Source: a virus
Lineage: Duplodnaviria > Heunggongvirae > Uroviricota > Caudoviricetes
IMG/VR virus record: IMGVR_UViG_2541047714_000011
Reading direction: 5' to 3' (one strand)
Length of the DNA: 44,330 nucleotides
Within the stretch, counting starts at the first letter, position 1. Each line of letters starts with the position of its first letter. The position numbers were made by a program, and so were the translations under genes. Below are positions 33,526 through 38,279 of the stretch, in pieces. The notes beneath the pieces are model-generated. The model did not search any database and was not told where the DNA came from. It saw only the letters and a list, made by a program, of their open reading frames with translations.

Positions 33526-34242
33526 ATGGAAAATAAAAAATCACTGACGACAGAACAGCTCGAAGACGCTAAGCGGCTTAAGGCTTTGTATGAGTCAAAA
33601 AAGAAAGAATTGGGAATAACCCAATACTCAATCGCTGATGAACTGGGTATCACCCAAGGAGCGGTAGGGCATTATCTTAATGGCAGAAACGCGCTAAACG
33701 TTGAGGTTGCATCTGGTTTTGCACGGCTGTTGCAAGTCTCAATTGCTGATTTTAGCCAGTCAATTGCTGCCAAGGTTGCAGAACAGGCAGAAAGCCTTAA
33801 GAGCGATGCCAACGTAAGGTATGCAGGGGAATACAGAGCAGGAAAGAGGTATCCGGTGTTAAGCAGTATCCAGGCTGGCTCGTGGTGTGAAGCATGCGAA
33901 CCATACACCATTAAAGACATAGATGTTTGGCTTGAGTCTGACGCGCATATTCAAGGTAATGCGTTCTGGCTTAAAGTGGAAGGTGATTCAATGACGGCAC
34001 CGGTTGGGTTAAGCATTCCAGAGGGAACATTCGTTCTTTTCGATACCGGAAGGGAGGCGATCAACGGCAGCTTGGTCATAGCAAAACTTTCTGACTCTAA
34101 CGAAGCAACATTCAAGAAGCTGATAATCGACGGCGGAAATAAATACCTCAAGGGACTTAATCCTGCATGGCCTCTCGTGCCAATCAATGGAAACTGCAAG
34201 ATTATAGGCGTTGCAATTGAGACAAAACTAAGGCTGGTTTGA
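33526..34242 (+). CDS. cI: CI repressor (HTH plus S24 LexA-like autopeptidase domain)
   Basis: 238 aa; N-terminal HTH (QYSIADELGITQGAVGHYLNG), C-terminal S24-like domain; divergent from cro; no SD before the ATG. Confidence 0.85.
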   Translation: MENKKSLTTEQLEDAKRLKALYESKKKELGITQYSIADELGITQGAVGHYLNGRNALNVEVASGFARLLQVSIADFSQSIAAKVAEQAESLKSDANVRYAGEYRAGKRYPVLSSIQAGSWCEACEPYTIKDIDVWLESDAHIQGNAFWLKVEGDSMTAPVGLSIPEGTFVLFDTGREAINGSLVIAKLSDSNEATFKKLIIDGGNKYLKGLNPAWPLVPINGNCKIIGVAIETKLRLV

Positions 34243-34259
34243 TCACGCAAGGGGCGATT

Positions 34260-34628
34260 ATGGTTGGAACCGCTATAGCAAGCTTTTTTGGGATGTTGGC
34301 AATCTCGACAATTTACGGCTTAGCGCATGCTTTTATTGCGAAATCTCTATCAGAAAAAATAAGCCAGGCTTGGGCGCATAGATCAGCTCGTTTCATGATT
34401 CTGGTGATCATAGCAATACAAGGGATATCTGCATTTATCCTCTATGGATCAAGCTTATACCTATTGTATCAAGGCGCGACATTTACGCCTTACACCAGTG
34501 ATTACGGAACTCTATACGATGGTAGTGAAGACATCACTGTGGCTTGGATCGTCTTTGGTTTATCTATGGCCGTGTCTGTTGTAGCAGACATCATTAAGGT
34601 AATTCTCGTCTTAACCTTCGCTGACTAA
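34260..34628 (+). CDS. Hypothetical polytopic membrane protein (~122 aa) downstream of cI
   Basis: ATG at 34260 with AAGGGG upstream, 18 nt after the cI stop; 3-4 predicted TM helices; track ORF begins at TTG 34239 overlapping the cI stop. Confidence 0.5.
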   Translation: MVGTAIASFFGMLAISTIYGLAHAFIAKSLSEKISQAWAHRSARFMILVIIAIQGISAFILYGSSLYLLYQGATFTPYTSDYGTLYDGSEDITVAWIVFGLSMAVSVVADIIKVILVLTFAD

Positions 34629-34714
34629 CCTATAATCCCGGCAGCAATAGCTATCGGGATCCACTTCACATATCCCGCATAAAAAGCACTGAACAAGCAG
34701 AAACCGAAAAAATA

Positions 34715-34801
34715 AATATCCTTTGTATTCATTTGCTTATCATTATTTCATCAAAAATAAATACCTTGGGTATTTACACAATAAAATACCTAAAGTATTC
34801 T
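34715..34801. promoter_or_regulatory. OL operators and PL promoter
   Basis: AATATcctttGTATT (34715-34729), AATACcttggGTATT (34760-34774), AATACctaaaGTATT (34785-34799); -35 TTTACA (34773-34778), 17-bp spacer, -10 TATTCT (34796-34801); same half-sites as OR. Confidence 0.55.
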
Positions 34802-34847
34802 TTAGCCATCAGCAGGACGCTGGTAGCCAAACGGAACAGATTGGCAG

Positions 34848-34888
34848 GCTCTTTAACATTGATGGGATTGTCCCGCCGAAATGCGGGA
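34848..34888 (+). promoter_or_regulatory. nutL-like site (boxA plus boxB)
   Basis: boxA gctctttaaca (34848-34858), boxB tcccgccgaaatgcggga (34871-34888); identical core to nutR. Confidence 0.5.
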
Positions 34889-35199
34889 ACCAAAGAGTAG
34901 TTGGCTTTGGGGTGACGTGAAGTGCAGCTGCACGACGGCAACCGGAAGATAAGCACCCGGCGCGTCACCGCCAAAGTCAATTCCATAGGCGAAATGCAGC
35001 CGCCAAACACAGCCAATGCTGCACATGCAACAGGAGGATTTATGTGAATGCATAACTTCAAAACCGAGGTTAATTAAATCTCTCGATCCGAGCATTGACC
35101 TATTAGGTGGCGAGATGCTCTTTCTGCCCCTCAGTTCGAGGGGCCAGAAACCACTTTGCAATCACTATCAATTCCAAAGTTGTTTCATCGGAGGTCAAC

Positions 35200-35499
35200 A
35201 TGACAGTAGTCATTACATATCTGGCTGACGATAACGCCAGAAATCGCCGCAGAGCACGCAGACAGGCTCAACGTGAACAGGCAATGCAAGAGCAGCGACT
35301 GGCACGAAAAATTGCGCTAAAGCTCTCTGGTTGCGTCAGAGCAGATAAAGCAGCATCACTCGGAAGCCTTCGCTGCAAGAAGGCAGAAGAAGTCGATCGT
35401 AAACAGAATCGTATTTACTACAGCAAGCCACGCAGTGAAATGGGTGTGACTTGTGTTGGTCGCCAGAAAATGAAATTAGGCAGCAAACCACTTATTTGA
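35200..35499 (+). CDS. N: N-like antiterminator with arginine-rich motif
   Basis: 99 aa from ATG at 35200 (GGAGG upstream); N-terminal ARM DDNARNRRRARRQAQREQ; first gene after PL/nutL; track ORF is N-extended. Confidence 0.55.
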   Translation: MTVVITYLADDNARNRRRARRQAQREQAMQEQRLARKIALKLSGCVRADKAASLGSLRCKKAEEVDRKQNRIYYSKPRSEMGVTCVGRQKMKLGSKPLI

Positions 35500-35507
35500 G
35501 GTGAGAT

Positions 35508-35594
35508 ATGGAAGAAGAATTTGAAGAGTTCGAAGAGCATCCTCAGGATGTGATGGAACAATACCAGGACTATCCGTATGACTACGACTATTGA
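35508..35594 (+). CDS. Hypothetical 28-aa acidic peptide
   Basis: Hand-translated MEEEFEEFEEHPQDVMEQYQDYPYDYDY; strong SD GAGGTGAG upstream. Confidence 0.3.
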   Translation: MEEEFEEFEEHPQDVMEQYQDYPYDYDY

Positions 35595-35778
35595 TACAAA
35601 TCAATGGTGTGGACAATTCAAGCGATGCAATGGATGCAAGCTGCAATCGGAATGCATGGTTAAGCCTGAAGAAATGTTTCCTGTAATGGAGGATGGGAAA
35701 TATGTCGATAAATGGGCAATACGAACGACGGCAATGATTGCCAGAGAACTTGGTAAACAGAACAACAAGGCTGCCTGA
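35578..35778 (+). CDS. Hypothetical Cys-containing small protein (66 aa)
   Basis: Track ORF; CxxxxxC..CxxC pattern; weak SD. Confidence 0.35.
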   Translation: MTTTIDTNQWCGQFKRCNGCKLQSECMVKPEEMFPVMEDGKYVDKWAIRTTAMIARELGKQNNKAA

Positions 35779-35805
35779 TGGTGGCCTTTGTTTTTAAGGT
35801 GCTAT

Positions 35806-36048
35806 ATGAAAATTAAAACCATGGGAGCAAGCCCATTAAGCGGTCGTATTTTTCAAGGAACATTAAACACTGAAAAAGGAATGTGGGTAGGAAAGAAAGA
35901 AGATGTCACCGAACAGGCAGTTAAGGCAGTAGCTGAACACCTGATGATAAAAGACCAGAAATACGCATACGAAACGAAGGATGGCAAATGGCTGATAATA
36001 AGCCATCAACTGGTTGATAAATTACCAGAAGATTTTATTGCTGATTAA
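35806..36048 (+). CDS. Hypothetical protein (80 aa)
   Basis: ATG at 35806 after AAGGTG; AT-rich; not recognised. Confidence 0.4.
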   Translation: MKIKTMGASPLSGRIFQGTLNTEKGMWVGKKEDVTEQAVKAVAEHLMIKDQKYAYETKDGKWLIISHQLVDKLPEDFIAD

Positions 36049-36176
36049 ATTCACTTTGGAAATAAAAACAGAATAAACACTGCACTGTGTATTCATTCCA
36101 ACGAGTGAATACACGGAGCAATGTCGCTCGTAACTAAACAGGAGCCGACTTGTTCTGATTATTGGAAATCTTCTTT

Positions 36177-36203
36177 GCCCTCCAGTGTGAGGGCAATTTT
36201 TTT
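36177..36203 (+). terminator. Intrinsic terminator in the early-left operon
   Basis: gccctc-cagtgt-gagggc hairpin followed by aattttttt. Confidence 0.55.
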
Positions 36204-36215
36204 GACGGAGGAATT

Positions 36216-36632
36216 ATGGAAATTACAGATATTCTGGTTAATCCAGATAATTACGACCAATTCAATATCCCTACTCAATCAGTTGATTTAGGTTGTGCAA
36301 CTGTCAGCGCATGGCTACTTAATGGTAAACAGTTGGATAAATGCCTTGATGCACATATGACGGTTAACAGCTTCCTTGCAGAAAAAACACACTGGCAAGA
36401 TGCTGGAGGGAAATATGCTGGATGGCTTGAAAGCATGGGATTTGAATATCAATCTGATGAAGGTTGGTGGAGCCTTATAGCTGTAACGCCTGAGACAATA
36501 GAATGCTTCGTTAAATACTCAAACGACGATGACTATAAACACCAGGTAGATTCTGCGATAGAAAGATATAAAAGAAAATCATTCAGCCACGAAATATCAT
36601 CAGTTCTTGATTTCATAGAAATCTTCAAATAA
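36216..36632 (+). CDS. Hypothetical protein (138 aa)
   Basis: ATG at 36216 preceded by GGAGG; acidic, Trp-rich; not recognised; track ORF is N-extended through the terminator. Confidence 0.45.
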   Translation: MEITDILVNPDNYDQFNIPTQSVDLGCATVSAWLLNGKQLDKCLDAHMTVNSFLAEKTHWQDAGGKYAGWLESMGFEYQSDEGWWSLIAVTPETIECFVKYSNDDDYKHQVDSAIERYKRKSFSHEISSVLDFIEIFK

Positions 36633-36715
36633 GCCGCCAAGCGCGGCTTTACCGCATACCAATAATGCTTCACTCGAGGCGTTTTCGTTATGCAATCAAA
36701 TATAAGGAGTTACCC

Positions 36716-36850
36716 ATGATGCACTTTCAGCTCGCGGGTAGCGGCGTCATGTCCGCTTTCTACCCGCACGAATCTGAATTATCACGCCGAGTTAAACAAT
36801 TAATCAGAGCAGCAAAGAAACAACTGGAGGCGTTATGCGCAATGAAATAG
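36716..36850 (+). CDS. Hypothetical small protein (44 aa)
   Basis: ATG at 36716 preceded by AAGGAG. Confidence 0.3.
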   Translation: MMHFQLAGSGVMSAFYPHESELSRRVKQLIRAAKKQLEALCAMK

Positions 36851-36987
36851 CCATTAATCACCAGATGCTTCGTGCAGCACAAAACAAAGCAGTAATAGCC
36901 AGATTTATTGGTGATTCAAAAATGTGGCTTGAAGCAAATAAAGCAATGAAATCAGCTATCAACCTTCCGTGGTATCGCAGGAAATGA
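36835..36987 (+). CDS. Hypothetical small protein (50 aa)
   Basis: Hand-translated MRNEIAINHQMLRAAQNKAVIARFIGDSKMWLEANKAMKSAINLPWYRRK; GGAGG upstream. Confidence 0.3.
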   Translation: MRNEIAINHQMLRAAQNKAVIARFIGDSKMWLEANKAMKSAINLPWYRRK

Positions 36988-37068
36988 GTTTTACAGATAA
37001 CTGGTCAGACGAAGAATTCATTCGCCAGATGAACAAAATGCTCAATCAGCACAAAGAACAGGAGAAAG

Positions 37069-37380
37069 ATGATGATTCTGACTCTGAATGATAAGCGTGA
37101 AATATCGCAAATCATCGCAAGTTTTACTGATGAAGATTACGAACGAATCAACAGTGAAGTTGATCGCCTCTGCAAACGCTGCGACCCAATAAGCGAAATG
37201 CTTCGCTCATATAAACCAGATGAACACACTAAGGACGCTATCGACTGGCTGGAAGATGATGACTGTGACTATCAGGAAAAAGCCGCTGAATGGTTCTGGG
37301 ATGCAATAACCAAAAGAGTTAAGGCTGAATATGCCTTCGCAATATTCAAACGCAGACACATTTTTGGAGAAGCGGCATGA
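37069..37380 (+). CDS. Hypothetical acidic protein (103 aa)
   Basis: Track ORF; AGGAGAAAG upstream; stop overlaps the recT start (ATGA). Confidence 0.4.
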   Translation: MMILTLNDKREISQIIASFTDEDYERINSEVDRLCKRCDPISEMLRSYKPDEHTKDAIDWLEDDDCDYQEKAAEWFWDAITKRVKAEYAFAIFKRRHIFGEAA

Positions 37381-38279
37381 GCAATATCGTTGAATTCGTT
37401 AAACAGCAAGAGCAGTTATTCTGCGGAGCATTGACTGAACAGACGGTGACATGGGCTAAGGAAAGCCAGTTTGCAATTCAGTATTTCCAGAAAAATGATT
37501 ACCTGGCTAAAACGGCACTGGCAAATCCAACCAGCGCACAGAACGCCATCATCAATGTTGCGGCGATCGGCATCACCTTAAACCCGGCCAGCAAACTTGC
37601 TTATCTAGTTCCGCGCGACGGCATGGTTTGCCTTGATATCAGCTATATGGGATTACTTCACCTTGCACAGTCGACAGGATCAATTAAGTGGGGGCAATGC
37701 AAACTGGTGTACTCAAACGACACCTATGAATCAAACGGCCTTGATTCAGCACCAACCCACAAATACAACGCATTTGGTGAGCGAGGCTCTATTGTTGGTG
37801 GTTATTGCACGGTTAAAACAGCAGATGGTGACTACCTGACTGAAGAAATGAGTCTGGCAGAAATTAAAGCTGTGGAAGCAACGAGCAAGGCAAAGAATGG
37901 ACCGTGGAAAACATTCTGGGAAGAGATGGCGCGTAAAACAATAGTTAAACGCGCCAGCAAATACTGGCCTAAAGCCCAGCGACTGGATAATGCCATTCAC
38001 CTGCTTAACGAAGATGAAGGTATGCATCAGGAACCAGTTATGCCGCACAAATCAGAGGAAGATATACGCGAAGATGAACGGAAACGCCAGCAGGAAATAA
38101 TGGATAAAGCACAACTTCTTTGTGATGAAATGGCTCAAGCAGAAAACATGGATGATTTGAAGCGATATTTTGCAGAAGCATATCGCCTGACATCTGGAAT
38201 GAAATTGCAGCAGAACGTACAAGCCATTTACATAGAATGCAAAGCGAAACTGGAGGTTGCCAGTGAGCAAACTGTATGA
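37377..38279 (+). CDS. recT: RecT-family single-strand annealing protein
   Basis: 300 aa; NGPWKTFWEEMARKTIVKRASKYWP parallels the RecT motif NGPWVTHWEEMAKKTAIRRLFKYLP. Confidence 0.8.
   Translation: MSNIVEFVKQQEQLFCGALTEQTVTWAKESQFAIQYFQKNDYLAKTALANPTSAQNAIINVAAIGITLNPASKLAYLVPRDGMVCLDISYMGLLHLAQSTGSIKWGQCKLVYSNDTYESNGLDSAPTHKYNAFGERGSIVGGYCTVKTADGDYLTEEMSLAEIKAVEATSKAKNGPWKTFWEEMARKTIVKRASKYWPKAQRLDNAIHLLNEDEGMHQEPVMPHKSEEDIREDERKRQQEIMDKAQLLCDEMAQAENMDDLKRYFAEAYRLTSGMKLQQNVQAIYIECKAKLEVASEQTV

Follow-up and report, generated by a model that had tools for sequence, protein, structure and literature searches.

Immediately behind the N-like antiterminator gene of the viral record IMGVR_UViG_2541047714_000011 lies a cluster of eight short open reading frames (ORFs A to H, 28 to 138 residues) that runs as far as recT with all genes on the + strand, and it is this interval between the N-like gene and recT that is described here, the window being the whole nucleotide sequence of 44.3 kb. 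The cluster is very probably the delayed-early accessory segment of a lambda-type pL operon in a mosaic lambdoid prophage of E. coli. Taken overall it is a mosaic of known type, a textbook lambdoid early-left block for which no new biology is needed, with a known half made up of orf28, Ral, cIII, Kil and the small RNA (sRNA) PreS, and an uncharacterised half made up of C, D, G and H. The lead most worth pursuing is H, which is put forward tentatively as a candidate Gam analogue.

Layout of the early-left cluster

The eight ORFs are tightly packed and overlap at five junctions, by 17 nucleotides (nt) for A/B, 16 nt for E/F and 20 nt for G/H, and through an ATGA for F/G and H/recT. Clear Shine-Dalgarno sequences precede D (GGAGG), E (AGGAG), F (GGAGG) and H (GGAG); those of A and C are of the GGTG type, and those of B and G are weaker. 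The layout thus agrees with the original prediction, made from the bare sequence, of at least seven short ORFs between N and recT, most with strong Shine-Dalgarno sequences and several with overlapping start and stop codons, whereas the AT-rich character it gave the stretch amounts to a real yet modest drop in GC content (0.39-0.43 over 35600-37400 against 0.44-0.52 in the flanks). The position does correspond to the lambdoid host-takeover slot, as had been proposed, since ral, cIII and kil, all named in that proposal, are present. The accompanying statement that none of the products could be recognised was wrong for A, B, E and F (orf28, Ral, cIII and Kil) and stands for C, D, G and H to the extent that these lack a characterised relative, so it is not the case that every ORF matches a characterised protein.

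All eight ORFs match PHROG or Pfam families, with E values from 7.6e-16 (G) to 2.8e-86 (D), and the remaining mechanically called ORFs on both strands gave no match to either collection. A 56-residue ORF at 36121-36291, without a family match and overlapping both PreS and the start of D, was dropped as a gene. NCBIfam returned no match for the ten proteins searched, and no Rfam 15 family matches 34600-37600. Genome-wide the window is best matched by the podovirus isolates vB_EcoP-611R6 and vB_EcoP-683R2, by HK140 (Hendrixvirinae) and by the P22-like HK620 and Kapi1. At least 80% coverage of the region is found in none of the sequenced phage records and in 9 of 5426 complete E. coli genomes, a rarity of the whole arrangement that is ordinary lambdoid shuffling.

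Genes of lambda type

ORF A (35508-35594; phrog_16060, E 7e-19) is identical to lambda orf28 in all 28 residues and all 87 nt and encodes a very acidic peptide with a net charge of −12. It runs into ORF B (35578-35778), which matches the Ral family PF11058 along its entire length (residues 1-66 of 66; 162.5 bits against a cut-off of 25; E 1.7e-48) and shares 65 of 66 residues with lambda Ral. ORF B is Ral, and by analogy with lambda it would alleviate restriction by type I restriction-modification systems. A hairpin with a T-run (35767..35795) over the ral stop codon is conserved with lambda. Of the lambda genes, orf28 is non-essential by CRISPR interference, as are ral, cIII and kil, with ral conditionally essential on hosts having type I restriction (PMC10695390).

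Further downstream ORF E (36716-36850, 44 residues) belongs to the cIII family (PF08134, 103.8 bits against a cut-off of 25, E 3.9e-30) and precedes kil with the 16-nt overlap, and ORF F (36835-36987, 50 residues), directly after cIII and of the size of Kil, belongs to PF06301 (72.6 bits against a cut-off of 27.6, E 1.7e-20; phrog_2055, E 1.2e-35). Both are divergent alleles of their lambda counterparts, with 13 of 39 identical residues for cIII and 18 of 33 for Kil. ORF F is Kil, for which the lambda protein predicts the function of a cell-division inhibitor peptide. Near-identical prophage copies carry matching RefSeq annotation for the orf28, ral, cIII and kil genes. It is near-identity to lambda, or homology at the family level, that identifies orf28, Ral, PreS, cIII and Kil.

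In its order and logic the cluster resembles the lambda pL operon (orf28-ral-PreS(tL2a)-ea10-cIII-kil-gam-bet-exo), including the recombination (Rec) module that follows, and the DNA of orf28, ral and the PreS spacer is 97-100% identical to that of lambda. The differences are that a DUF7446 gene has been inserted after ral, that ea10 has been replaced by an unrelated gene of 138 residues, that G and H stand in place of gam, recT in place of bet and a Gp157/Mu-Gam-like gene in place of exo, and that no sieB lies on the opposite strand.

The PreS sRNA and terminator tL2a

BLAST comparison delimits two lambda-derived blocks of 97% identity, 35483-35795 (orf28, ral and the hairpin) and 36055-36202, which are contiguous in lambda, where the second is the spacer between ral and ea10. 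In lambda this spacer encodes LPR1/PreS, an Hfq-dependent and lytic-specific sRNA that measures about 88 nt before processing and about 68 nt after it and that ends 3' in the GC hairpin and poly-U of tL2a; it pairs with the dnaN mRNA, raising translation of the sliding clamp and promoting phage DNA replication (bioRxiv 10.1101/2024.10.31.621285). Between 36064 and 36203 the prophage departs from the lambda spacer at one position, which lies in the terminator stem and leaves the pair intact (U.G to U-A). The element lies downstream of ral and has at least 92% identity to lambda LPR1, the level at which the authors of LPR1 regard it as conserved, and it has the GC-rich hairpin and poly-U 3' end (tL2a) together with an unpaired seed region. 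It is predicted to fold (z = -3.8) as a stem-loop at the 5' end, an AU-rich single-stranded segment and then the terminator, the typical shape of an Hfq sRNA. There is no Rfam model for PreS. With its 5' end (36116) placed by the published size of about 88 nt, 36116..36203 is the PreS/LPR1 gene, and by analogy with lambda its product would be expressed in the lytic cycle, bind Hfq and up-regulate dnaN.

The internal terminator that had been noted in the raw sequence is real, with an 8-bp stem at 36175-36196 followed by seven T residues to 36203, and is more than a terminator in that this anonymous-looking element supplies the 3' end of a phage sRNA already characterised. Both sources that name the element agree on tL2a, and in Sf6 the corresponding terminator, annotated 'homology to phage lambda; tL2A', adjoins a mosaic 'boundary sequence'. 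Homology to lambda ends exactly 3' of the U-tract, where the variable slot begins. With the sRNA kept to the base, save for the one change, while the genes on either side have been exchanged, PreS is a fixed boundary between modules in these mosaics.

ORFs C and D and the variable slot

ORF C (35806-36048, 80 residues) is carried by a 259-bp insertion (35796-36054) relative to lambda, whose DNA is contiguous across the insertion point. It is a member of DUF7446 (PF24233, 99.8 bits against a cut-off of 24.1, E 7.5e-29; phrog_1578, E 2.8e-40), and RefSeq names the gene 'DUF7446 family protein'. Virulent Ackermannviridae, among them Vi01 and PhaxI, have homologues about 55% identical, as do other phages, for a total of 283 phage records; of 5426 complete E. 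coli genomes, 45 contain C. Whereas C lies in the pL operon of a temperate phage, Vi01_147c lies in a group of small ORFs that follows the major capsid gene.

ORF D (36216-36632, 138 residues) is acidic (isoelectric point, pI, 4.5; net charge −12) and occupies the lambda ea10 slot, its start coinciding with that of ea10. Kinship with Ea10 (DUF2528) was ruled out, as hhalign gave a probability of 0.1% and D has no Pfam match. It is present in 37 of 5426 complete E. coli genomes and forms only 10 clusters among 5.8 billion proteins. Among sequenced phages its relatives are confined to rV5-like virulent phages, where they are 64-66% identical over the full length, and the rV5 homologue, gp207 (ORF 212), is surrounded by small ORFs in a region that has sigma-70 promoters, in contrast to the pL setting of D. 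Of 417 nt, 143 differ between D and the rV5 homologue, with 51 codons changed synonymously only against 49 changed non-synonymously, and this pattern of codon change indicates purifying selection on D. A homologue of D with 64-65% identity is also carried by sixteen records whose label is 'Campylobacter phage' (host C. jejuni; including MG065661 and MG065662), and their genomes are of rV5-like size (128-141 kb for MG065661 and MG065662); either the host assignment is doubtful or these are rV5-like phages with an unexpected host. Between D and cIII lie two hairpins (36633..36683), of which the second (36664-36683) is terminator-like.

The slot 3' of tL2a, in which D lies, is hypervariable across phages, with Ea10/DUF2528, D, a 'superinfection exclusion protein', Nmad5, an 'anti-restriction protein', Sf6 gene 33 and a lectin-like gene among its occupants. 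The most likely role for C and D, held at low confidence, would be that of lytic-cycle cargo for host interaction or anti-defence. Their place inside the repressed pL operon and their homologues in virulent phages favour such a role over protection of the lysogen. That they instead are phage-encoded morons for defence or superinfection exclusion, and have no part in takeover or anti-defence, would fit their rare and patchy distribution and the 'superinfection exclusion protein' gene that the slot holds in E. coli P393-F10, but is quite improbable for genes that sit behind terminators without a convincing promoter of their own and that recur in strictly virulent Ackermannviridae and rV5-like phages having no lysogen to protect. 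PADLOC defence models run against A, C, D, G and H gave only a match of C to DndE (E 0.007, 15 bits), taken as noise, and none for D. It weighs against an anti-defence role too that C and D have no fold or domain match (the PDB profile search with D and the PDB sequence search with C were both empty) and no credible match in the defence library. Literature searches on DUF7446, the PHROG numbers and rV5 gp207 found nothing. Being common to temperate and strictly virulent coliphages, C and D are good candidates for an anti-defence screen.

ORF H at the head of recombination modules

ORF H (37072-37380) encodes an acidic protein of 102 residues (pI 4.7), predicted by AlphaFold2 to be all-helical at a predicted local distance difference test (pLDDT) value of 74. 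Its family, phrog_3486, carries no annotation; a set of 1.84 billion proteins, clustered at 50% identity, contains 54 representatives of it, and its members have so far come from phages and prophages of Enterobacterales (Escherichia, Salmonella, Cronobacter, Enterobacter, Erwinia and Pantoea). Downstream of H follow recT (37377-38279; PF03837, E 2.5e-33), encoding a single-strand annealing protein (SAP), and directly 3' of it a gene of the Sipho_Gp157 family (38257..38745; PF05565, E 1e-37), the HK140 counterpart of which (gp40) is annotated 'Mu Gam-like end protection'. In the window the Rec module contains neither an exonuclease nor a single-stranded DNA-binding protein (SSB), and tblastn found no Gam, GamL, Abc2 or Exo in the window.

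In all 11 informative contexts H heads a recombination module, adjoining the annealing protein or nuclease in 10 of them and standing one gene away in the remaining one (L017, where RecT and Gp157 follow). The order H-RecT-Gp157 is common to this window, HK140 and Kapi1, and is preceded by kil in an Enterobacter adelaidei prophage (L011). Elsewhere the partner changes: H is followed by a RecE-like nuclease in Salmonella phage SEN22, by a RecE-like protein and a SAP in Erwinia phage phiEt88, by a DUF3799 nuclease (RecE-like) in L014, by RecT in L013, and by a lambda-Bet-like protein (64-69%) with YqaJ in L012 and L015. In Cronobacter phage ENT47670 the order is cIII-kil-H-RecT-Exo, with an Exo 87% identical to that of lambda, and in Erwinia phage Midgardsormr38 it is cIII-kil-like-H-RecT-Exo. 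In the contexts fetched, no gap separates H from the gene that follows, the two either abutting or overlapping, and most loci have cIII, kil or both upstream of H. A search of these loci turned up no Gam, GamL or Abc2.

The closest modules are those of HK140 and Kapi1 (ral-cIII-(kil)-gp42-RecT-Mu-Gam-like), with identities of about 97% for H, recT and Gp157; they belong to the SAP-4 + MuGam type of Zheng et al. (Genome Res 2025) and differ in having no C or D, the Kapi1 slot being filled by Nmad5 and a phrog_14587 gene. A single Chi site (GCTGGTGG, at 40090) occurs in the 44.3 kb, about the chance expectation, which fits the published finding of no Chi enrichment in lambdoid phages whose Rec module has an anti-RecBCD function.

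Is ORF H a Gam analogue?

The position of H is the one that gam takes in lambda (cIII-kil-gam-bet-exo) and gamL in phi80. Like lambda Gam (PF06064) and phi80 GamL it lies directly upstream of the annealing protein and has a similar length and acidity (102 residues and pI 4.7, against 98 and 5.0 for GamS and 93 and 4.7 for GamL), and the predicted helical model has its best, though tentative, structural match in GamS. From gene position, size, charge and predicted fold we propose, at something short of even confidence, that H may be a Gam analogue and so a candidate inhibitor of RecBCD, although no sequence relationship to Gam or GamL is detectable. Somewhat more doubtful again is the broader proposal that H founds an unrecognised phage family of RecBCD or end-nuclease inhibitors with a Gam-like helical fold, C and D being further counter-defence factors. 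With that same reserve, the family may stand in for gam as the first gene of RecT-, Bet- and RecE-type modules, including modules surveyed as having no Gam-type inhibitor.

Several results weigh against these proposals. No significant sequence similarity links H to Gam or GamL, in that Pfam gave no hit at E up to 10 for 9 family members and does not place H in PF06064, hhalign with shallow and deep profiles gave probabilities of 0.2-10% (GamL 0.2%), and tblastn returned no GamL. Controls by reversal and block shuffling showed that the 83-column hhalign alignment of H with Gam (P 0.003, score 20.5) was reached by 17 of 100 block-shuffled Gam profiles, and, the alignment not being significant against shuffles, the shared D-D-x-D/E-Y/F-Q-E motif was kept as an observation and not as evidence of homology. 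Hidden Markov model searches of the PDB with two H profiles missed Gam (2UUZ), their matches to ribosomal protein S15, S100 and designed proteins (E > 0.007) being taken as noise, and Foldseek against BFVD gave no Gam and one probable distant family member only. The model behind the GamS match is of moderate quality, built from 5 sequences and weak in its middle part. A Mu-Gam-like gene is already in the module, beside which a second inhibitor would be partly redundant, and Zheng et al., in their fold-based survey of lambdoid Rec modules, credit HK140, in which H is gp42, with SAP-4 + MuGam only.

Some of the same observations could be accommodated if H were an accessory recombination factor that assists the annealing protein or exonuclease of the phage, much as has been proposed for P22 Arf/Abc1, for example by loading, by bridging to SSB or by regulating the module. 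Its strict linkage and translational coupling to the first Rec gene in every context, the Mu-Gam-like protein alongside that could already provide end protection, and the lack of similarity to known inhibitors are all compatible with such a factor. We consider it unlikely, because the partners of H are heterogeneous (several RecT types, lambda-Bet-like and RecE-like proteins, with or without Exo, YqaJ and Gp157), which argues for a constant host target, as for Gam, and not for a specific phage partner, and because of the tentative GamS fold match and the Gam-like size and charge. What weight remains falls to other roles of H.

ORF G and the smallest reading frames

ORF G (36984-37091; phrog_17766, E 7.6e-16) encodes an acidic protein of 35 residues and is coupled to the kil stop through the ATGA. 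Its residues 1-16 are identical to those of HK75 Gp33, HK446 gp33, HK97 gp42.1 and Sf6 gp30, and the remainder is unrelated. G shares with the HK75 and HK446 proteins the position directly after kil and the ATGA overlap, and differs in being 21 residues shorter (35 against 56), so that homology does not extend over the full length, and in being followed by H and RecT where Gp33 is followed by Erf. HK75 Gp33 alone is reported to trigger the P2 OLD system, as do Gam and T7 gp5.9, and has been proposed as a new manipulator of RecBCD, the early-left neighbourhood being described as an anti-defence hotspot tied to recombination loci (bioRxiv 10.64898/2026.07.10.737580). G may equally well be a junction remnant.

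It seems rather unlikely, for A and G taken together, that they have no function as proteins and are conserved junction DNA or coupling ORFs feeding ral and H. Each does overlap the start of the next gene; A, with its nucleotide identity to lambda, carries no selection signal; and in G the 16-residue block is all that is common across phages, with unrelated sequence downstream as expected of a recombination boundary, and comparison with SEN22 gives 3 non-synonymous changes and 1 synonymous. Against this, both frames are open in all relatives seen, and expression of HK75 Gp33, which has the N-terminal block of G, is by itself enough to give a phenotype.

In the E. coli protein P0035 (69 residues) the N-terminal part of G is naturally fused, in frame, to the last 43 residues of H. 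This fusion was apparently made by deletion between the DDD-coding stretches (KDDD in G and DDDC in H), and suggests recurrent slippage or recombination between short G/H repeats. Beyond the Rec genes an ORF of 185 residues (39884-40441, + strand) resembles in its C-terminal two-thirds (40061-40438) HK446 gp27 (31% over 137 residues, tblastn E 2e-7), which is Oad2, an inhibitor of P2 OLD defence (2026 preprint).

Genes and sites upstream of the cluster

The N-like antiterminator (35200..35499, 99 residues; phrog_271, E 1.5e-37) shares 20 of its C-terminal 37 residues with lambda N. Upstream of it, at 35116..35145 on the + strand, a boxA-like TGCTCTTTC followed by the hairpin GCCCCTC-AGTTC-GAGGGGC makes a plausible nutL by the lambda boxA consensus, and HK140 has an annotated 'putative Nut boxA site' at the matching position. 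The 7-bp hairpin has the loop AGTTC, which differs from the GNRA-like boxB loops of lambda and P22. Further upstream lie a cI-type repressor gene (33526-34242, + strand) and, starting at its stop codon, an ORF of 129 residues (34239-34628, + strand) with about four predicted membrane helices and no Pfam family, the identical protein WP_000233126 being named hypothetical in RefSeq. From its rexAB-like position this ORF is probably expressed in the lysogen, and it could be an exclusion or defence gene.

Proposed working of the operon

Expression, antitermination and PreS production in this prophage are predicted from lambda. The N-like protein acting at the nutL-like site would make transcription from pL resistant to termination, so that RNA polymerase would pass several intrinsic terminators and express the genes from orf28 through RecT and Gp157. 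Ral would then alleviate type I restriction, and PreS, dependent on Hfq, would pair with dnaN as in lambda and increase sliding clamp synthesis and phage replication. cIII would inhibit FtsH and favour lysogeny, and Kil would block division in an FtsZ/ZipA-dependent manner. H, possibly a dimer like Gam, might block the DNA-end binding site of RecBCD, a step held with the reserve that applies to its role as a Gam analogue, and with RecBCD blocked the phage RecT pathway could work on linear DNA.

RecBCD is now viewed as an immunity hub, the inhibition of which triggers retrons, OLD and other abortive systems. If the proposal for H is true, the H family would change the count of lambdoid Rec modules scored as lacking an anti-RecBCD function, and H would be a new potential trigger of systems of the retron and OLD type.

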